Source: Candidatus Saccharimonadales bacterium
GTDB lineage: Bacteria > Patescibacteriota > Saccharimonadia > Saccharimonadales > Saccharimonadaceae
NCBI GenBank assembly: GCA_038205065.1
Contig: JBBRCG010000004.1
Location: 793 to 64,792, forward strand
Direction: 5' to 3'
Length of the DNA stretch: 64,000 nucleotides
Both the position numbers and the translations under genes were made by a program. The notes under the pieces are model-generated. The model did no database searches, was not told the DNA's origin, and saw nothing but the letters and a program-made list of their open reading frames with translations. Position 1 is the stretch's first letter, and each line of letters begins with the position of its first letter. Below are positions 13,346 through 21,912 of this stretch, piece after piece.

Positions 13346-14434
13346 ATGGAAACGGAAAAAAGGGCAATTTCTCGTCGTGCGAGGGTGTGGCAATGGATAA
13401 AATCTCATCGCCCAATTGTTATCGCTATTATTGGCGCTATCTTGATCGCCGCGGCAAGCGTGACGACGTACGCCATCTTGAGCCAACCGCTTCCGAAGCT
13501 TGATACCACTCCGATCGCCGTCAAGCCAAAACCTCCTGTGGTTAAATATTACTCTCTTTTGAACGGGATCCAGGTCGCTGGCGCGGCGAATCAAACCAGT
13601 CCCGTCACCGCAATTATGATCGAAAACAGCCCCGACGCGCGCCCGCAATCAGGCCTCAAGCAAGCCGAAGTCGTCTACGAAGCGATCGCCGAGGGTGGTA
13701 TCACACGATTTCTCGCGCTTTATCAGCAGAACAAACCCCAGCTTATCGGCCCGGTCCGTAGTGTCCGCCCGTACTATGTCGACTGGCTCGCACCGTACCA
13801 GCCGAGCATTGCCCATGTCGGCGGGAGTGCGGCCGCCCTCGCCGAGGTACGAAACGGCAATTACCGCGACCTCGACCAGTTCTTCAACGGCTCCTACTAT
13901 TGGCGCTCCACCGATCGCTACGCTCCCCACAACGTCTACACCAGTTTCGCAAAACTCGACGCCCTCAATGCCAAAAAAGGCTACACCTCGAGTGACTTTA
14001 CCTCATTTGCACGCACCGACGGTGCTCCTGCTGCGACTCAAGATGCGACCTCTGTTGATGTGACGATCAGTAGCGCATTGTTTAACTCCCACTACGATTA
14101 CGATGTGGCCACAAATTCCTACAATCGCTCCCAGGGTGGCGCGCCTCATCTCGATAGGGAAGAGGGCCAAATTTCACCGAGTTCGGTGATCGTTATGGAC
14201 GTCAATATGTCGCTCATCATGCAGGATGGCTACCGCGAAGACATCACGACTTCTGGCACCGGCAAAGCTTACGTGTTCCAAAACGGCACCGTCCAGGCAG
14301 TAACCTGGCAGAAATCCGACCACACGAGTCCGCTTCGTCTCGTCGGAGCCGACGGAAAAGACATCTCTCTCGTCAGGGGCCAAACCTGGATCACGGCTGT
14401 ACCAAACGGCACGGGAGGCGTCACGTGGAAGTAG
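13346..14434 (+). CDS. DUF3048 (YerB-like) membrane-anchored protein
   Basis: MIENSPDARPQSGL..AEVVYE..AEGGITRFLA...GPVRSVRPY...HVGGS...R.APHNVY. Confidence 0.85.
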   Translation: METEKRAISRRARVWQWIKSHRPIVIAIIGAILIAAASVTTYAILSQPLPKLDTTPIAVKPKPPVVKYYSLLNGIQVAGAANQTSPVTAIMIENSPDARPQSGLKQAEVVYEAIAEGGITRFLALYQQNKPQLIGPVRSVRPYYVDWLAPYQPSIAHVGGSAAALAEVRNGNYRDLDQFFNGSYYWRSTDRYAPHNVYTSFAKLDALNAKKGYTSSDFTSFARTDGAPAATQDATSVDVTISSALFNSHYDYDVATNSYNRSQGGAPHLDREEGQISPSSVIVMDVNMSLIMQDGYREDITTSGTGKAYVFQNGTVQAVTWQKSDHTSPLRLVGADGKDISLVRGQTWITAVPNGTGGVTWK

Positions 14435-15978
14435 AAGTCGAAGAGGTGAAACGCGCCCACCAGAAGATGATCAAGGAATATTGGCCGTCGTACTACAAAA
14501 AAGCCATCCTCGGTACCGTCGGCATGGAAGTATTGCTCACGGCGGTCGTCATCGGAGCGCTAGTCATGGTCGGTATGCCTGTCGAGGGACTTGGATTCTG
14601 GATTATCATCATCGCGGTGCTCGTCGGGGCAGTCGGTGTAAATATTATCTTGATCAATCAAGTGACGTTACCTCTCAAGGATCTCTCTGCAGCTCTCACG
14701 CACGTTTCGGGCGAACAGAGCGACGTGGTTCCGCCAAATCCAAACGCCAAACGCTACGAGCGAAACGGCTTCAAGCCACTACTACAGTATCTGTACGAGA
14801 ACGCGTCCGGTACGCAAGTCGGTGCGGGCGATACTGGTGAAACAGAGGTGAAATTACTCTCGCAGGCCTTTGATCAGACGCACGCTGGCATCGTCGTGCT
14901 CGACTCATCGGGCGCCGTCCAATACGCGAATAAGCACGCGCCTATCTCGCTCGGCCCCGATAACATCAAGCACCTCGATCTGCTATTCGAAGATGAAGGC
15001 GCCCTCGAAACCTGGCTCGCGAGTGTTCGCGACGTCCAAGTCCACGCCGAAAAAACCTGGCTCCGCGTGCCGAACAAAGTCGTCGGCGAAGAAGATCGCC
15101 GGATTTTTGACGTTGCGGCGACATTCGAGAAGGGGAGTAAGGCCGAGATCGTCCTCGTGCTCTTCGATCAGTCGGGTGAATACCAACCCGAAGATGATGC
15201 ACTCGATTTCATCTCATTTGCCGCCCACGAGCTCCGCGGCCCGATCACTGTCATCCGCGGCTACCTCGACGTGCTCGATATCGAGACCGAAAATATCCTG
15301 CAACCAGATCAGCGCGAGCTCATCAAGCGTCTCGTCGTGAGTGCCAACCGCCTCTCGAGCTATATCAATAACATCCTCAATGCCTCGCGCTATGACCGCC
15401 GTCACCTCAAGCTTCATCTCGTCGAGGACAATGTCGCCGACATCTACGACACGATCAATGACGATATGATGCTCCGTGCCGAGTCCCAGAACCGGCTCCT
15501 GTCGGTTGAGATTCCGCGCGATCTGCCAACCATCGCCGCCGACCGCTCTAGCCTCTCTGAGGTGATAGGCAACCTCATCGATAACGCCATCAAATACTCA
15601 AACGAAGGTGGCCTCGTCCACGTGACCGCTGCCGTCGATGGCAATTCGGTCAAAGTCTCCATCGAAGATCATGGTATCGGCATCCCGTCGAGCGTCATCG
15701 GCAATCTATTCCACAAATTTTATCGCTCACACCGCTCACGCGAGACCGTCGCCGGCACCGGTATCGGCCTCTATATCTGCAAAGCGATCGTCGAGAGCCA
15801 CGGTGGTACGATCGGGGTCACGAGCGCCGAGGACCAAGGTTCGACATTTAGCTTCGACGTCCCGATCTATGCGACCGTCAAAGACAAGCTCCTCGCTGGC
15901 GACAGCATCAATTCCAACGCGGGAATCATCTCCACCGGTGGTAGCTGGATAAAAAATCATTCGATGTATAAAGGGTAA
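14425..15978 (+). CDS. Sensor histidine kinase (HisKA + HATPase)
   Basis: Two TMs, AAHELRGP H-box, NLIDNAIKY N-box, DHGIGI, GTGIGL, GSTF. Confidence 0.95.
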   Translation: MEVEVEEVKRAHQKMIKEYWPSYYKKAILGTVGMEVLLTAVVIGALVMVGMPVEGLGFWIIIIAVLVGAVGVNIILINQVTLPLKDLSAALTHVSGEQSDVVPPNPNAKRYERNGFKPLLQYLYENASGTQVGAGDTGETEVKLLSQAFDQTHAGIVVLDSSGAVQYANKHAPISLGPDNIKHLDLLFEDEGALETWLASVRDVQVHAEKTWLRVPNKVVGEEDRRIFDVAATFEKGSKAEIVLVLFDQSGEYQPEDDALDFISFAAHELRGPITVIRGYLDVLDIETENILQPDQRELIKRLVVSANRLSSYINNILNASRYDRRHLKLHLVEDNVADIYDTINDDMMLRAESQNRLLSVEIPRDLPTIAADRSSLSEVIGNLIDNAIKYSNEGGLVHVTAAVDGNSVKVSIEDHGIGIPSSVIGNLFHKFYRSHRSRETVAGTGIGLYICKAIVESHGGTIGVTSAEDQGSTFSFDVPIYATVKDKLLAGDSINSNAGIISTGGSWIKNHSMYKG

Positions 15979-15996
15979 CAGAGGTATAATAACGAT

Positions 15997-16368
15997 ATGG
16001 CCATTCACACAGTACTCGTAGTCGAAGACGACCGATTCATCGGCGAGATGTATGTCCGTAGCCTTCAGCACGCCGGGTACACTGTCGACTGGGTCGTCGA
16101 TGGCAATGACGGCATCGTCGCGGCGCGCAACAAACCCTACGATCTCATCCTCCTCGATATCATGCTTCCCGAAGTTCGCGGCACCGACATCCTCCGCCAA
16201 TTGAAAAAAGGTGACAATCCTATCGCGCCTAATTCAAAAGTCATCATCATGACCAATTTCGACCAAGACGAAGACTCGCGCACCGCCATGGAGCACGACG
16301 CCGACGGTTACCTCATCAAAGCCGAGATCACCCCCAGAAAACTCCTCGAACTCATCGGGCAGATGTAG
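15997..16368 (+). CDS. Single-domain response regulator (receiver only)
   Basis: VVEDD, LLDIMLP, MTN, YLIKA; 123 aa. Confidence 0.93.
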   Translation: MAIHTVLVVEDDRFIGEMYVRSLQHAGYTVDWVVDGNDGIVAARNKPYDLILLDIMLPEVRGTDILRQLKKGDNPIAPNSKVIIMTNFDQDEDSRTAMEHDADGYLIKAEITPRKLLELIGQM

Positions 16369-16376
16369 TAGTATTT

Positions 16377-16406
16377 GACATAATACTACATTATATGTTA
16401 TAATGA
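16377..16406 (+). promoter_or_regulatory. Sigma-70 promoter upstream of the tRNA-Glu leader
   Basis: TTGACA...TATAAT; the -35 is the spacer of the palindrome GTAGTATT-TGACAT-AATACTAC. Confidence 0.65.
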
Positions 16407-16597
16407 AGAGATAGACTAGACGCACTGGTCTTTTTTTGATAAGATACGACAAGCCATTTGGCCCCATATCCTTCGGATATGTGACTCAAATTGCACCAAA
16501 GTGAGTAAGCCAATTTGGCCCATCTGATTACAGATGAAGCCATTCGGCTCGAAATAAAAAATGAGCAAGACTCATTTTGTCTTTCGCTCGCTCTCAT

Positions 16598-16672
16598 GGC
16601 CCCATCGTCTAACGGTTAGGACACCAGGTTCTCATCCTGACAATCCGAGTTCGATTCTCGGTAGGGTCACCA
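16598..16672 (+). tRNA. tRNA-Glu(CTC)
   Basis: GGCCCCATCGTCTAACGGTTAGGACACCAGGTT-CTC-ATCCTGACAATCCGAGTTCGATTCTCGGTAGGGTCACCA. Confidence 0.97.
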
Positions 16673-16887
16673 AAGTAAAAACCTCTGGCTTTAGCTAGGG
16701 GTTTTTACTTTGGTGATCTCCATCTGGAAAACGAGAAGCCGCTGGGACCGCAAAATTATTGTTTATTACTTGAAAATGTGATATTATATTCGGAATTCCT
16801 CGTGGATGCGAGGTGGCGACACAGCAATGGGTCGTAACGGTCTCTCTGCCAAACCTCATTGGCAAGCGCAAGAGAAAGGTAAGCCGG

Positions 16888-17244
16888 ATGGCTACCAATT
16901 TCAACGTCGAGCGCATCGACATCATCGAAGGTCCCCGACTCGAGGACCTGCTGATGCACATGGCTCTTGTCGTGGCCTTCAGGGAACGCGGTACCTCACT
17001 TCGATCCGACGACATCCAGGTGTCGTTCGACGAAGTCCGGTACTACGACGACGAAGGTCATGACGTCGGCGAGCTCCTTGCCGGTGCCGTGAGCTTCAGG
17101 GGAACCCTCGTTGCGATCTCCTTCCTCGGAAGGGATCCATCGAAAGCGCCGAACTTCGTCATCGCGATGAAGTCGGGGCTGGGGATCTTCGAGGGTCACT
17201 ACAACGTGCAGACCCGAAAGGGTTGTCTCGTGCACGTGAAGTGA
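16888..17244 (+). CDS. Hypothetical protein (ORFan) between duplicated tRNA-Glu 3' ends
   Basis: GAAAGG SD, ATG 16888, terminator GTCCCGCACCGA...TCGGTGCGGGAC plus T-run. Confidence 0.7.
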   Translation: MATNFNVERIDIIEGPRLEDLLMHMALVVAFRERGTSLRSDDIQVSFDEVRYYDDEGHDVGELLAGAVSFRGTLVAISFLGRDPSKAPNFVIAMKSGLGIFEGHYNVQTRKGCLVHVK

Positions 17245-17496
17245 GCACATGTCCCGCACCGATACCCTCGGTGCGGGACTGCTTCTTTTTAGGGCGAAAG
17301 CTTGAATCTCATCCAGAAAATCGCGGGTGAGAATTGTCGGTGACAATTCGCAAGGCAATCTCACGGATGAACTGGTTCATTCGACTGAGTTGCGGGTGAG
17401 ACAGTTCCGTGAACTGTCGCAAGGACACCTTCAGATGAAATCTGTGATTTCAATCTCGAAGTGTCGGGGTCGCAGTGTGCGACCGCGGAACGTGAC

Positions 17497-17558
17497 CGAC
17501 TCCCGCAGGGGTCACCAAACTAAAAGCCTCATCTTTACGATGGGGTTTTTAGTTTGGT
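17497..17558 (+). repeat. Degenerate copy of tRNA-Glu 3' end plus terminator (att-like)
   Basis: GGGTCACCAAACTAAAAGCCTC (17509-17530) vs GGGTCACCAAAGTAAAAACCTC (16664-16685), 20/22 identical; preceded by CGACTCCCGCAGG, a decayed T-arm. Confidence 0.7.
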
Positions 17559-17785
17559 AAATCTTGTCAGAGATTTGAACCCAGAGGGTGCGATAGCGGA
17601 GCGAGACCGGGGGAGCTTTCTCATCCGTAGCTCGCGAACGATATACCATAGTACCCCCGCAGAGATTACAACGAATGAATTCATCCGCATATATTAATAT
17701 ATGAGAAAGAGTGCTTGTACTACAAGCATACATAATGTATACTTATCTACATGAATAGATTATCACTTACTCGGAGGAGGAAAAT

Positions 17786-18619
17786 ATGAGTGTTAAGATA
17801 ACCCTAATAGGGGACGGGCTCAGTTACGAGTGCGACGCAACCGTTGTTCAGGCAGCGAAGATTATCGGATTCCTAAATACAGACGACACGCTTTCTAATG
17901 ACTATGGCTCTACCAATCCAACATTAAGTACATCGTTTATTGAGGCACCTCAAGCTAGGGCTCTTTCTTCCCCGCGCGAAGCGATCCTCGGCGCTAATGC
18001 TAAAACAAATTCTCAGAAAATCCTCGTCTTGGGCGCCTACCTAACGCAAAGAGACGGATCGGATGAGTTTGCAACATCTGAGTTGAAGACATTGTTCGTC
18101 AAGGCAGGCGAGCCTGCACCCAGGAATCTCACTCGAGATATTCGGGATGCGATAAAGGTCGGTTATATTATGGAGAGTATGACATCTTCAGACATGTATG
18201 CCGTTACCAACACCGGTCTCCAGACCCTAGAGGAAGGGTTTAGCTCAACGTTACAAAAAAAGACCCGTAAAAAATCCAGTAGCAAATCTTCGAGGAAGAC
18301 AAGCACACCGGAGTGGTTACTCGGACTTTCAGTCGATGACCAGCTCGAAGGGTTCCCGTCCTATAGACAGCTTGGAACTCGGAGTAACAAAGTGCTCTGG
18401 ATTTTACAGTGGGTTACGATAGCAGGCAGAGAACGCATCACCGGTACTGACATCTGTTCTGTAGCCGACAAGCTATCAGACGATATTCCCGCTAAACAAG
18501 TTGCCGCAAGCTTTTCACAGCACCTATCAGGTGGCCGGGTATCGAAGACGGCTGACGGCTACAAAATTTTATTCAGTGGTAGCCAATACCTGAAGCAACT
18601 CGTAGGCACGGAAGGTTAA
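17786..18619 (+). CDS. Hypothetical protein with two predicted winged-helix domains
   Basis: AKTNSQKILVLGAYL...EFATSELKTLFVKAGEPAPRNLTRDIRDAIKVGYI...YAVTNTG and a second similar unit (KVLWILQW...ITGTDI...YKILFSG); strong GGAGGAGG SD; AT-richer codons. Confidence 0.6.
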   Translation: MSVKITLIGDGLSYECDATVVQAAKIIGFLNTDDTLSNDYGSTNPTLSTSFIEAPQARALSSPREAILGANAKTNSQKILVLGAYLTQRDGSDEFATSELKTLFVKAGEPAPRNLTRDIRDAIKVGYIMESMTSSDMYAVTNTGLQTLEEGFSSTLQKKTRKKSSSKSSRKTSTPEWLLGLSVDDQLEGFPSYRQLGTRSNKVLWILQWVTIAGRERITGTDICSVADKLSDDIPAKQVAASFSQHLSGGRVSKTADGYKILFSGSQYLKQLVGTEG

Positions 18620-18621
18620 CC

Positions 18622-19011
18622 ATGGAGCGTCTGCCAACTGAGGATTTAATCGCAAAATACCGGGCTGAGTACCAAAAGTTAAAGCCGATACATTCGAATG
18701 CGATCGGCGAAAAGGTCTACTTTAATATGCCCGGTTTTAAGCACTTGATCTTTAAAGGCAGCCACCGCCGAGAAACGGCAACTATTTTTAATCGCCTCGT
18801 TCTCATTCCGCTTATTGCACCCGTCATATATAATTGCAAAGAAGAGATTGAAATCCGAATTCGCAAAGAAATAATTGATGGTAAGAAAACACGAGTGACA
18901 TATTACGCCCTCGAGGCTCATGTCGGCAAAGACAGTGTTCGCGTTCGTGTTATAACTCGCAAAGTAGGCGAGAAGGGCAAACACTACTTCATGAGTATTA
19001 TGAAGTACTAA
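18622..19011 (+). CDS. Small basic protein, putative RelE/PBECR-like ribonuclease
   Basis: 129 aa, K/R-rich; VYFN..GFKHL..K...R...R and YYAL....VRVRVITRKVG..GKHYFMSIM pattern recalled from BECR-fold nucleases; not verified by search. Confidence 0.45.
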   Translation: MERLPTEDLIAKYRAEYQKLKPIHSNAIGEKVYFNMPGFKHLIFKGSHRRETATIFNRLVLIPLIAPVIYNCKEEIEIRIRKEIIDGKKTRVTYYALEAHVGKDSVRVRVITRKVGEKGKHYFMSIMKY

Positions 19012-19104
19012 AAAACGCCCCAGATGAGACGTTCTTTAGTGTGCTCGTTTCCAGACTTAGGAGATTTAACCTTGGCCGGTTCTAGGGCAAGCCCCACGAA
19101 CACA
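19012..19104 (-). ncRNA. Candidate antisense small RNA convergent on the 18622-19011 gene
   Basis: Minus-strand TTGCAA(19133-38)-17 nt-TATTAT(19110-15); 9-bp closing stem with a G-U pair; terminator AACGTCTC-ATCT-GGGGCGTT-TTTT ending at the stop codon of the CDS. Confidence 0.55.
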
Positions 19105-19333
19105 AACCTATAATAGCATGCGCTTACCCATATTGCAATAGTTCAAGCATTATTATATAACTAACACTCCTTCTCTCGTCAACAAACCCGTCTTCGCCAA
19201 GATAACCCTCTTTACACAATCATTCAGCACCTGCTGCAGGGTCATACCATCTGTTGCAATTCACTCCGCTCGTCTATAATACCCAGCAACAGCACAGTAA
19301 GTGCGATTATCTAAACAGAAAGGCGTATGGGTC

Positions 19334-19885
19334 ATGAACGAAGGCACGCAAACACGTAATCACAGCGGGCTCGCCACGGCATCATTGGTGCTCGGTATTC
19401 TGGCAGTCGTCTTCGGCCTCGTCGGCATCGGCGGTATCCTTGGCATTCTCGCGATCGTCTTCGGCGCGGTATCGTTAAAAGCCGACAAGAGTAAATCGAT
19501 CGCAGGTATTATCACTGGCGGAATCGGTGTCATCATATCTATCCTGGTTCTCATATTTATCACGCTCATCATGCCGCTGTCGCTCGTCGCACTGCGAGAG
19601 AATCAGCGGGATACTCAGCGCAAAGAAGATGTCTCTATCCTCGTCAGCGACGTCACGGGGTATGTGAGCAACAACCGCGGACAGCTACCGGATAACGACT
19701 GGGTTTCGGGCATGGCGTATAAACTCAATGAGGTGAAGCGCACCCAATTCGGCAACGATACGCCGCCAACCACCGATACTGCAAATTATCGAAGCGGCGA
19801 AGACTGCGACGGCAACATGGCCGCCCGTAAGTTCTCGCTCACGATACTTCTCGAACGTGGCGGTAGCTATTGTATGGGTTCATAG
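19334..19885 (+). CDS. DUF4190 membrane protein with pilin-like C-terminal domain
   Basis: GLATASLVLGIL...GILAIVFGAVSL...AGII.G.IG (DUF4190); QRDTQRKEDV...YVSNNRGQLP resembles CPR pilins. Confidence 0.7.
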   Translation: MNEGTQTRNHSGLATASLVLGILAVVFGLVGIGGILGILAIVFGAVSLKADKSKSIAGIITGGIGVIISILVLIFITLIMPLSLVALRENQRDTQRKEDVSILVSDVTGYVSNNRGQLPDNDWVSGMAYKLNEVKRTQFGNDTPPTTDTANYRSGEDCDGNMAARKFSLTILLERGGSYCMGS

Positions 19886-19942
19886 CGAGCCTTCGATAGC
19901 CCCCTTAACCCTCCACAATGCCCTGCAACGTGTCAACCCCCG

Positions 19943-20785
19943 CTAGTAGCGACTACCATTGCTCCGAATCAAATCCATCTTCGCCTCGATCACCATCTTT
20001 GCGTATTCATTCAGCACCAACTGCACAGTCAAATCATCTCTGTGCCAGCCGGCCGCAGAAAATCGCTCAGATTGCACGGGAGGGGAGACGGTCTTGATCT
20101 CAATATCCCAGGGGGTAAATTTGTACCAATCCATCCTCGCACGCTGAAGCACGAGATCCGTCGCGACGAGCGTGATCGATTTCGGATGCCATTTCATGGT
20201 TTCGAGCAAATCAAGCGATCGCTTCACGTTGTCGGGGAGGGTGACTGATCTATCCTCGATGATGATATCTTCAGGTGACACGCCTGCATCGATCGCGATC
20301 CGCGCCATCCTGACAGCCTCGGGCTCAATATTTTCTCTGTAATGCGGCCCATTGCCACTGACCATCAACGTGTCCGCGACGCCACTCTGATAGAGTTCGA
20401 CCGCACGCTCGACGCACACATTTAACTCCGAGCCAAAGACGAAGATCAGATCAGTTTTCGATTCATCTTGCTCAGGCACAAGTGCGTCGTAGACCCTGGA
20501 GTACACCTCGTGGTCTGGATTTGCGTGGATGAAGGCGACAATACCTTGATTTGTCTGCGTGATCGCCTCGACTAACTCGTCGAGACTCATGGCTGCGTTG
20601 CCGATGGACCGGCACCACTCCGTAGAAACTTCTGCAAGCTCAGCTAATTCACGGATCGGACCGAAAATATGGTCGTTGTTCTCGAGGTAATCGTAGTGCA
20701 TGGTAGGCTTTTGTGATTCATACCGAGATAACTCGATCACATCTTCGGCTGTCGGAAGCTCAGCTCCGCTCGTGCGTATCGTCAT
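19943..20785 (-). CDS. YdcF/DUF218 (ElyC/SanA-like) protein
   Basis: DLIFVFG...RAVELY..G....LMVSG.G...EA..M...AID.GVS.EDIIIEDRS.T..DN. Confidence 0.85.
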   Translation of the reverse strand: MTIRTSGAELPTAEDVIELSRYESQKPTMHYDYLENNDHIFGPIRELAELAEVSTEWCRSIGNAAMSLDELVEAITQTNQGIVAFIHANPDHEVYSRVYDALVPEQDESKTDLIFVFGSELNVCVERAVELYQSGVADTLMVSGNGPHYRENIEPEAVRMARIAIDAGVSPEDIIIEDRSVTLPDNVKRSLDLLETMKWHPKSITLVATDLVLQRARMDWYKFTPWDIEIKTVSPPVQSERFSAAGWHRDDLTVQLVLNEYAKMVIEAKMDLIRSNGSRY

Positions 20786-20800
20786 ATTGTTATCATATCA

Positions 20801-20860
20801 AAAAAAGCATTCAGCCCCCGGAACTCCGAGGGCTGAATGCCATTGGAGTTCCGGGGGCTC
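20801..20860 (-). terminator. Terminator with overlapping alternative (antiterminator-like) stem
   Basis: Minus strand: GCATTCAGCCC/GGGCTGAATGC plus T7, competing with AGCCCCCGGAACTCC/GGAGTTCCGGGGGCT. Confidence 0.65.
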
Positions 20861-20863
20861 ACG

Positions 20864-21223
20864 TCACCGGAGAGGGAGACCCTGCCACCACGCGCCCCCG
20901 TCAGCGGGGATACGATAGTACGCCCAGTAGGAACGACCGTTCTCCTCTGCGAGCACTGCGGGGACGAGATCGCCGAGCCGATCCGTCGGCCCATCACGTT
21001 GTACTCGTATGCCCTCAGGGCGCATGAAATTGATGTTGATCCCTCGCTCGCTTGCCGCACAGTCTGCGCAGCGCAGCGTCTCCTCCACGCCGAACGTGTC
21101 GGACTCGCGCCAGAGCTTGATGCCACCATGCCCACAGAGCTTGCAGACGTAGTTCGGCGGTGTGTGGGTCGACGAATAGTCGACCGGTTCTGTCGGAGTC
21201 GGATCTGAAACCCGAATTGTCAT
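20864..21223 (-). CDS. Hypothetical Cys-containing protein (CxxC...CxxC)
   Basis: YVCKLCG...LRCADCA; TAGACA-17-TATAGT promoter; start could be 21265. Confidence 0.6.
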   Translation of the reverse strand: MTIRVSDPTPTEPVDYSSTHTPPNYVCKLCGHGGIKLWRESDTFGVEETLRCADCAASERGININFMRPEGIRVQRDGPTDRLGDLVPAVLAEENGRSYWAYYRIPADGGAWWQGLPLR

Positions 21224-21309
21224 GGCGTCCCCTAGTCGAATTGTTTGTGGTGCGTTCATAACCACTATAGAATAATGCGAATAATCTGTCTAGAGTAGTG
21301 CAAGTATGC

Positions 21310-21912
21310 CTATTCGTTATTATCGTCGAGGTTAACCTTGATCGTCACGTAGCTCGGCGCGGCGTTTTGGTCGGAACTCCTAAACGCCGAGAGGAAAGAG
21401 TCGCCGTAGACCATCATATCTTCGAATGACTTCGGTACGACAGAGACACGGACGTACTGATTCTTACTGTTTTTGAAGTGATACTGCATATTCACGGACA
21501 TCGCATAATCAGTCTCAAACTGGGTGAATCCGGCTGCTTCGATCTTGGTCTTGAGATCGGCGACCGTATTGCTCACGGTATCATTGTGCGCATACTCAAT
21601 ACTTGATGAATAGGTGCGACTCTTGTCCCAGCTATAGACACGCTTATCACCAAAGATATCAGACTTCGCGCTGCGGTAAGAATCACCGAGATTGAAGCTC
21701 GTGTAAATCGATTTGATCTGGGATAGGCGAGACTCATTTATTTGATTTGCCGTCACGTGGATGAGAGCTCCAAATATGAGCGCAGCGCCCAAGATGGCCA
21801 TGAGTCCGATTACGAGATAGCTCACAATCCCACGCTTCACCAAAATGTGAGATCGTGACAGGGAAATAAATTGCTGTGGTTTCGAAACTTTTTTGATTGT
21901 TTTCTTCTTCAT
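21310..21912 (-). CDS. Hypothetical membrane-anchored protein
   Basis: Basic N-terminus, one TM, soluble C-terminal domain; TATAGT 6 nt before ATG. Confidence 0.7.
   Translation of the reverse strand: MKKKTIKKVSKPQQFISLSRSHILVKRGIVSYLVIGLMAILGAALIFGALIHVTANQINESRLSQIKSIYTSFNLGDSYRSAKSDIFGDKRVYSWDKSRTYSSSIEYAHNDTVSNTVADLKTKIEAAGFTQFETDYAMSVNMQYHFKNSKNQYVRVSVVPKSFEDMMVYGDSFLSAFRSSDQNAAPSYVTIKVNLDDNNE

Follow-up and report, generated by a model that had tools for sequence, protein, structure and literature searches.

The subject of this analysis is a tandem repeat of 69 nucleotides (nt) in a 64,000-nt stretch of DNA (the window; contig JBBRCG010000004.1 of a Candidatus Saccharimonadales bacterium, from a sediment metagenome). 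The repeat lies in a unit 650 nt downstream of an intact gene for tRNA-Glu(CTC) and is enclosed there by two pieces of a partial tRNA-Glu copy with a terminator of its own. It represents two tandem copies of a ~90-nt three-hairpin RNA module whose family Rfam 15 does not contain. A covariance model (R1) derived from loci outside the window had exactly two matches in the 64 kb, at 17395–17485 and 17326–17394. Read from the 5′ end, the module consists of GUGAGA, a first hairpin (P1), the joint GCAAG, a long bulged hairpin (P2), GG, and a third hairpin (P3) with a GGAAC loop. The invariant parts, GUGAGA (the last two bases of which may extend P1), GCAAG, GG, and GGAAC, are mostly unpaired. The locus is composed as follows:

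16598–16672, plus strand: intact tRNA-Glu(CTC) gene (ARAGORN; Rfam tRNA, 51.7 bits), with a syntenic tRNA-Glu in the relatives L003 and L006
16667–16716, plus strand: terminator hairpin of the intact tRNA-Glu (inverted repeat I1)
17308–17328, plus strand: left tRNA-derived arm, tRNA-Glu from the anticodon loop to T54 (positions 34–54), CTCATCCAGAAAATC-GCGGG-T
17323–17327, plus strand: T-stem 5′ strand GCGGG, closing helix P0 of the unit
17326–17394, plus strand: module copy 1 (R1 47.9 bits, E 1.7e-09; repeat family D4), P1 and P2 without P3; parts are 5′ GGUGAGA, P1 17331–17338/17342–17349, GCAAG 17350–17354, long hairpin P2 17355–17393
17395–17485, plus strand: module copy 2, complete (R1 86.8 bits, E 1.8e-18, model positions 1–90; covariation in alignment A2, see below); parts are 5′ GGUGAGA, P1 17400–17407/17411–17418, GCAAG 17419–17423, P2 17424–17465, GG, P3 17468–17473/17479–17484
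17485–17496, plus strand: extra GCGGAACGTGAC, a second copy of the P3 loop and 3′ strand by comparison with the family consensus CGGGGTC-GC-GGAAC-GT-GACC
17497–17517, plus strand: right tRNA-derived arm, CGACT (C56–U60), CCCGC (17502–17506, T-stem 3′ strand), AGGGGTC (acceptor 3′ strand), discriminator A, CCA
17514–17558, plus strand: the unit's own terminator hairpin and T run (inverted repeat I3, 90% complementary; alignment A1)

The repeat itself can be read directly from the window sequence. The first segment, GCGGGTGA-GAATTGTC-GGT-GACAATTC-GCAAGG (33 nt, 17323–17355), recurs at an offset of 69 nt as GCGGGTGA-GACAGTTC-CGT-GAACTGTC-GCAAGG (33 nt, 17392–17424; repeat family D4). Between the two segments the flanks do not differ at all, and each of the 8-bp stems pairs without a mismatch; four stem positions are changed from one segment to the other, all of them with compensation on the opposite strand. 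This is what the original prediction, made from the letters alone, had described, and the E values given above, at which R1 recognizes both copies, lie far beyond what chance would produce. The region 17320–17520 folds far more stably than its shuffles (z of about −8.4, on either strand). The hairpin that had been noted as GGATGAAC/GTTCATTC proved to be the inner part of the longer hairpin 17355–17393, and the third one, GGTCGC/GCGACC (17468–17473/17479–17484), is P3 of the family. The proposed hairpin CAGAT-GAA-ATCTG was in the wrong register, as comparative pairing joins AGATGAAATC (17433–17442) with GATTTCAATCT (17446–17456), within an outer stem formed by 17424–17432 and 17458–17465.

The tRNA 3′ end that follows had been taken for decayed. 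It is well preserved: 17497–17517 corresponds to tRNA-Glu from C56 to CCA, as judged from a direct repeat with the region of the intact gene (D1; 16652–16705 versus 17497–17550, 70% over 54 nt, which is the last 21 nt of the tRNA plus the terminator), from alignment A1, and from a contig of sequencing run X2, in which a relative carries the same sequence uninterrupted. That contig joins 16640 via AGATCGCGGGTT to 17497 and thereby contains an uninterrupted tRNA-Glu with exactly the T arm of the window unit, which therefore is the interrupted 3′ part of a tRNA-Glu; the left arm (17308–17328) shares 19 of 21 bases with it. The order in the window is thus tRNA-Glu 34–54, the module pair, a spare half of P3, tRNA-Glu from C56 to CCA (56–76), and the terminator, in which the module pair takes the place of T-loop nucleotide 55 and a multi-helix junction around it is closed by the T stem GCGGG/CCCGC. 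The 69-nt tandem duplicates the T-stem strand together with P1 and P2. Accordingly, the original view of two units in tandem stands, but not that of a free-standing tandem aptamer, since the module is duplicated within the T loop of a partial tRNA-Glu copy. To judge from its sequence, GCGGAACGTGAC at 17485–17496 could serve as an alternative pairing partner for GGTCGC (17468–17473). The terminator at 17514–17558 is a diverged copy of that of tRNA-Glu and includes a compensating change (G to C at 17520 with C to G at 17552); a simple terminator scan of the window did not list it.

The lead to the family came from the relatives L003 and L006, whose histidine kinase next to the tRNA gene is ~70% identical to that of the window. 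Upstream of the syntenic tRNA-Glu, both carry the first 17 nt of a tRNA-Glu, which continue with TGAGA, a covarying hairpin, TCGCAAGG, and more hairpins before returning to tRNA sequence at TAGGAAATC. The same module therefore occupies the D loop of a 5′ tRNA-Glu copy there:

L003, 9009–9135: full 5′ unit, a 5′ tRNA-Glu copy with the module in its D loop
L006, 7976–8110: full 5′ unit of the same kind

A core pattern without any tRNA context (GTGAGA N15-16 TYGCAAGG N35-62 GCGGRACG) was found at at least 120 loci on metagenome contigs and had no match in viral contigs. All family-wide counts given here (copies, loci, tRNA identities) rest on the matches listed from the scan with this pattern. 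A pattern for the tRNA-Glu junction occurred in five GTDB species, all of them Saccharibacteria/Patescibacteria. R1, in turn, also matched the relatives L003, L006, and L010–13, and had 77 matches in 561 kb of loci (one to four per locus). Most members consist of a single module; tandem variants are found at L014, L100, L117, L122, L089, L110, L115, and L119. A variant on the minus strand of L093 (~1065), with GCGAAA for GTGAGA and TTGAGGG for TCGCAAGG, indicates that the family is wider than the core pattern.

Covariation was assessed in an alignment of 105 distinct copies (A2), for P1 (columns 6–13/19–26), P2 (32–52/58–78), and P3 (81–86/92–97). Of 3221 cells, 95.1% were paired; both sides had changed at 25 of the 31 pairs, with 621 compensatory cells. 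None of 500 shuffles reached any of these measures, and when the partners were slid by one to three columns, pairing dropped to 26–45%. The search pattern cannot have created this covariation because it fixed only unpaired or invariant positions. Thus, the supposition that selection acts on structure rather than on sequence is strongly supported. Among the paired columns, G·T or T·G cells (198) clearly outnumbered A·C or C·A cells (40), which assigns the fold to the sense strand, be it as RNA or as the top DNA strand; the folding strand is the one that has the neighbouring tRNA in sense orientation. When the window was searched with Rfam 15, only tRNA reached the threshold and nothing credible was returned over 17290–17560 at E ≤ 10, in agreement with the original statement that no riboswitch is recognizable, and no Rfam 15 family matched the modules of L091 and eight other loci. 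The occurrences that could have spoken against the prediction did not materialize: no known family was hit, further instances are many, and members are present in metatranscriptome assemblies.

The copies share a strict context. For 87 copies, the fetched locus contained a tRNA on the same strand; 82 of these copies were located at most 400 nt (mostly 50–90 nt) away from it, about half upstream and half downstream, and at least 16 tRNA identities were involved. In many copies, the flanks are identical to the neighbouring tRNA over 21–25 nt. Aligning flanks to tRNA yielded sharp junctions, the module replacing one or two loop nucleotides of a partial tRNA gene copy, which lies upstream of the intact tRNA if its 5′ end is kept, and downstream if its 3′ end is kept. 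Downstream units consist of tRNA positions ~42–55, the module, and position 57 to the end; exactly one nucleotide is replaced (canonical 55, in the T loop), the T stem can close the junction, and past CCA the units go on to a duplicate of the terminator. Upstream units begin at tRNA position 1, sometimes preceded by a promoter copy (L012), and end 8–30 nt past the module, which sits at one of four sites: bordered by positions 17 and 20, with G18G19 replaced (Glu, Gln); in the D region at 24–25|27–28, nt 26–27 (Gly, Phe, Ala, Lys, Ser); in the anticodon loop at 37–38|40–41 (Pro, Leu); or in the T loop (Leu, Gln, Glu). Modules in the region of the anticodon loop (positions 38–40) were observed at L031, L132, and L089 (tRNA-Pro) and at L058 (tRNA-Leu), and all three hairpin loops of a tRNA can therefore carry the module. 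The window conforms to this rule, as it shows the R1 score, tRNA segments on both sides, and an intact tRNA of the same identity; its distance of 650 nt from that tRNA exceeds the 50–90 nt usual in the family.

Three modules accompany one gene in L091 (2680–3220). There, a tRNA-Leu copy with two modules (D arm and T loop) and without its last 11 nt is followed by the intact tRNA-Leu, which in turn precedes a 3′ copy with another module. All parts derived from the tRNA match the intact gene at 100% identity, whereas the three modules are strongly diverged. The same combination of tRNA and position recurs in many loci, for example tRNA-Gly(GCC) at 25|28 eleven times, which argues for old, inherited insertions. 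At the start of many downstream units, T-stem 5′ strand and T loop are present as an exact reverse complement, resulting in a hairpin that competes with the T stem (for example, CTTGAACCTCC in L084 and ATTCGAACCC in L063). An exact 7-nt complement was present in 7 of 105 copies, compared with 0.7 expected, and the upstream hairpins were more stable than shuffles. No excess over shuffles was revealed by an ungapped search for an uninterrupted helix of 15 nt linking the junction to a complement in the flank, and this idea was dropped.

Proteins encoded near the modules were compared as well. When the 426 open reading frames (ORFs) within 3 kb of modules were clustered, no dominant family emerged; the largest cluster covered 9 of 114 loci, and the sequence of its representative, on which Pfam was not run, bore no sign of a transposase. 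In the absence of a conserved neighbouring protein gene, any partner would have to act in trans. In 5 of the 114 loci, large serine recombinase genes end at or beside module-carrying tRNA genes:

L046, 1862–3724: serine recombinase gene
L066, 3196–4479: serine recombinase gene
L079, 46–1506: serine recombinase gene
L115, 3463–5040: serine recombinase gene
L120, 9402–11258: serine recombinase gene

These genes run antisense into, or end beside, the module-carrying tRNA genes, which suggests that serine-recombinase islands integrated at tRNA genes in the respective bacteria. A phage origin of the module was considered and rejected, as there were no matches in viral contigs and the neighbouring ORFs lacked PHROG matches except for one weak match to a family of unknown function.

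Two further places near the unit contain tRNA-Glu remnants:

16451–16555, plus strand: upstream remnants of tRNA-Glu 5′ ends, three copies of AAGCCATTTGGCCCCAT... (repeat family D3)
17575–17675, plus strand: second, decayed downstream unit with the foldback TTGAACCC-AGA-GGGT, a degenerate insert GCGATAGCGG... (starting GCGATAGC), and a decayed tRNA-Glu 3′ remnant ACCCCCGCAGAGATTAC (repeats D2 and D14)

A unit similar to the decayed one is present in L003 (9300–9405); in the window, the unit under study therefore stands between the tRNA and an older unit. In the upstream array, the first remnant consists of GGCCCCAT, a small TTCG-capped hairpin, and GTGAC, the last five bases of the module. The remnant is also found in the relative L002 and occupies the site where, in other relatives, the D loop of a 5′ tRNA-Glu copy holds the complete module; by sequence it looks like an upstream unit from which the module was deleted. 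Upstream of the tRNA-Glu region (16375–16431) is a perfect sigma-70 match (TTGACA-18-TATAAT with TG), followed at once by a terminator-like hairpin and a T run.

The intact tRNA-Glu(CTC) has a C6·A67 mismatch and a G2·U71 pair in its acceptor stem, and its T stem reads CCGAG/CTCGG where the displaced copy has GCGGG/CCCGC; judging from these bases, its 3′ part may have been replaced by recombination. Upstream of tRNA-Glu are genes for a DUF3048 protein, a histidine kinase, and a response regulator, in an order that is kept in relatives; the kinase has hundreds of homologues named Saccharimonadales or Saccharibacteria. Gene content downstream of tRNA-Glu varies among relatives, as at an integration hot spot. 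The ORF between tRNA-Glu and the unit (16813–17244; 143 amino acids, 118 from the first ATG) had no homologue among 5.8 billion protein clusters, only the match to itself, and matched nothing in Pfam or PHROG. The gene may be spurious; being an orphan, the ORF was dropped as synteny anchor, and the histidine kinase was used instead. Beyond the unit, at 17640–19011, the sequence is first AT-rich and then contains two ORFs, of 277 and 129 amino acids, without Pfam or PHROG match. None of nine neighbouring ORFs in the window (13346–21912) contains an integrase domain.

Module-like contigs were present in metatranscriptome assemblies, reaching a depth of ~800 in run X31 (tRNA, ~2000) and of 100–130 in X32 (mapping on L091), a hint that the units may be transcribed. 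The explanation we favour, and consider moderately probable, is a structured RNA domain that is carried on a tRNA-derived handle and binds a partner. The unit would be transcribed as a chimeric non-coding RNA; the tRNA-derived arms, as the handle, would give it ends like those of a tRNA, make it match the cognate tRNA in sequence, and possibly subject it to tRNA-type processing. The working part would be the module, its invariant junction nucleotides binding the partner, either a protein or a small ligand, and the 69-nt tandem would be a local duplication of P1 and P2. Units would stem from rare, old insertions into duplicated tRNA copies and would have been inherited and maintained since, without active spread. 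This explanation, with a partner acting in trans, is favoured because of the strand asymmetry of the fold, the kept terminators, the long retention with compensatory change, and the preserved identity of the arms.

Several observations speak against it. Of five RNA runs, three had scaffold-to-tRNA depth ratios of 0.01–0.02 and did not surpass the DNA runs, as only X31 and X32 did; at L036, RNA contigs covered only the tRNA. A promoter scan found no sigma-70-like promoter between the upstream terminator (17251–17279) and the window unit. In the window, moreover, the arm differs from the adjoining tRNA-Glu at 4 of 21 positions, so that the match to the cognate tRNA is not kept here, and the reverse-complement foldbacks and arrays of decayed units resemble footprints of the kind left by insertion or recombination, which fit a selfish element equally well. 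The motif TTGAAT/TTGAAC upstream of the module had been considered as a −35 box and was discarded, as the spacing to −10-like sequences varies (15–20 nt) and the scan calls no promoter; on sequence grounds, the T loop in reverse complement accounts for it better.

The foremost alternative is a small mobile or recombination element with tRNA gene loops as its targets, for which the module would provide the structure that is recognized or that is catalytic. The module would fold as single-stranded DNA or as an RNA intermediate; insertion would bring or generate a replacement for the disrupted part of the tRNA, so that an intact gene and an interrupted partial copy are left; an enzyme encoded elsewhere would act in trans; and old copies would decay into arrays. 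Such an element would account for the precision of the insertions (1–2 nt replaced), always in hairpin loops (T, D, anticodon) of many tRNAs, for the duplicated terminator or promoter on the partial copy, for the excess of T-arm foldbacks in downstream units (7 of 105 versus 0.7), for the arrays at 16451–16555 and 17575–17675, and for the serine recombinase genes at five loci. Structure rather than sequence is likewise what integron attC sites conserve. On the other hand, the joints are invariant in sequence, unlike those of attC; copies within one locus or genome are strongly diverged and none are near-identical; the same tRNA and position pairs occur in many genomes, pointing to old vertical inheritance; the modules diverge, yet the arms keep the sequence of the intact gene; and neither a recombinase or transposase is consistently nearby nor are there matches in viral contigs. 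A mobile element is judged somewhat unlikely but taken seriously as a rival, given the precise insertions, the foldbacks, and the decayed arrays, and the two explanations may also apply in sequence, the mobile element to the origin of the units and the RNA domain to their present role. That the window contains only ordinary debris of an integrase-mediated island at tRNA-Glu, with 17497–17550 as attR and the hairpins as incidental or arm-type sites, is very unlikely. The directly repeated tRNA 3′ end and terminator (16652–16705 and 17497–17550), the variable gene content downstream, the orphan ORFs and AT-rich stretch that follow, and the C6·A67 mismatch, if it means a replaced 3′ part, would fit. 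However, the hairpins have relatives at many tRNA types, in a strongly covarying family that exceeds 100 members and has invariant joints; the usual crossover segment, the T loop, is broken up by the module; an integrase domain is present in none of the nine ORFs tested; and elsewhere the "island" mostly measures only ~70 nt.

Could the modules be true tRNA introns, removed to give a working tRNA? Non-canonical archaeal tRNA introns occupy such loop positions, and the copy at L121 leaves a complete tRNA-Leu after removal in silico. Yet the "exons" are truncated, an intact gene of the same identity stands beside nearly every copy, and Rfam returned no group I match. When excision was simulated with 84 combinations of boundaries, ARAGORN recognized a tRNA across the junction in only 1 of 122 copies; thus, the modules are not introns of working genes in the simple sense, and we give this possibility hardly any credence. 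The notion of a tandem riboswitch or aptamer pair that controls a downstream gene, of which the original prediction had named only the tandem aptamer, fares no better and is extremely unlikely: two similar structured units in tandem, conserved unpaired nucleotides, and the alternative pairings possible at 17485–17496 would be in keeping with it, but a tRNA 3′ end and a terminator follow instead of a coding region, a tRNA gene is the neighbour in every case whereas no protein gene is consistently so, and most modules are single. A bolder proposal is that the units are tRNA-specific RNA guides or adaptors, the module serving as a scaffold that would recruit an effector, and arm and foldback addressing the cognate tRNA or its gene. 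We regard this as improbable. Such units might use RNA to guide insertion or repair at tRNA genes, survey or sequester a particular tRNA, or control its maturation as competitors in pairing with its precursor; if true, Patescibacteria, with their reduced genomes, would possess a tRNA-addressed RNA system of a new class.

Patescibacteria (the candidate phyla radiation) form a large, mostly uncultured share of the bacteria and have tiny genomes, in which conserved non-coding DNA is unlikely to be idle. If the structured RNA domain is functional, it points to a new layer of tRNA biology, such as control of processing, mimicry, or addressing; if the module is a mobile or recombination element, it represents a new way to colonize tRNA genes without killing them. 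With the covariance model and the junction rules, either can be tested directly. No description of the module family was found by full-text literature search, prior description having been checked in the literature and Rfam only. To our knowledge, there is no bacterial precedent for one module occupying the elbow or anticodon loops of spare, truncated copies of many tRNA genes beside intact partners.

Among known systems, attachment (att) repeats at tRNA genes resemble the units in combining an intact tRNA with a direct repeat of its 3′ part, in forming arrays, in involving T and anticodon loops, and, in some cases, in abutting recombinase genes. A direct repeat of a tRNA 3′ segment bounding an insert is indeed present in the window, and 21-nt exact repeats occur in other loci; between the repeats, however, the window has only an orphan ORF in place of an integrase and cargo. 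Unlike att repeats, the units contain a covarying 90-nt module inside the loop of the repeat, have ~70 nt and no integrase between the repeats, and include 5′ copies with insertions in the D region. Archaeal tRNA introns and split tRNAs likewise place inserts in the regions of the D, anticodon, and T loops or have tRNA genes in pieces. They are short, variable, and defined by a bulge-helix-bulge motif, whereas the module is one conserved structured family, in a bacterial host (Saccharibacteria), in truncated copies (a tRNA in 1 of 122), and next to an intact copy. tmRNA and the Y RNAs, including YrlA, share the union of a tRNA-derived or tRNA-mimicking part (T arm, acceptor 3′ end with CCA) with a structured domain foreign to tRNA; here, the arm copies the neighbouring tRNA and differs from locus to locus, and a lineage has many paralogous units rather than a single housekeeping gene. 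Neither tmRNA nor Y RNA models matched. A standard or permuted tmRNA, suggested by the CCA end, was rejected for the window, as ARAGORN finds only two tRNAs, Rfam has no match, and the acceptor strand is that of tRNA-Glu. Nor was there a match to the T-box riboswitch (RF00230) in the window, where a tRNA gene precedes the unit and a terminator closes it.

Integron attC sites also keep their structure through divergence, fold strand-specifically, and are associated with insertion. An attC site is one long imperfect hairpin with a GTTRRRY core, in contrast to the three hairpins and invariant joints of the module, which sits in tRNA loops without an integron integrase nearby. By analogy, the units may also be likened to omega RNA (IscB), reRNA (TnpB), and the bridge RNA of IS110, in which a structured scaffold lies beside a target-copying stretch, 5′ or 3′, with some units carrying the reverse-complement copy; they differ from these transposon-end guide RNAs in their much shorter scaffold and in lacking an adjacent TnpB, IscB, or IS110 gene and a match to HEARO or related Rfam families. 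Each of the classes compared, where testable, failed at least one defining feature, and the module is rated a new kind of element.

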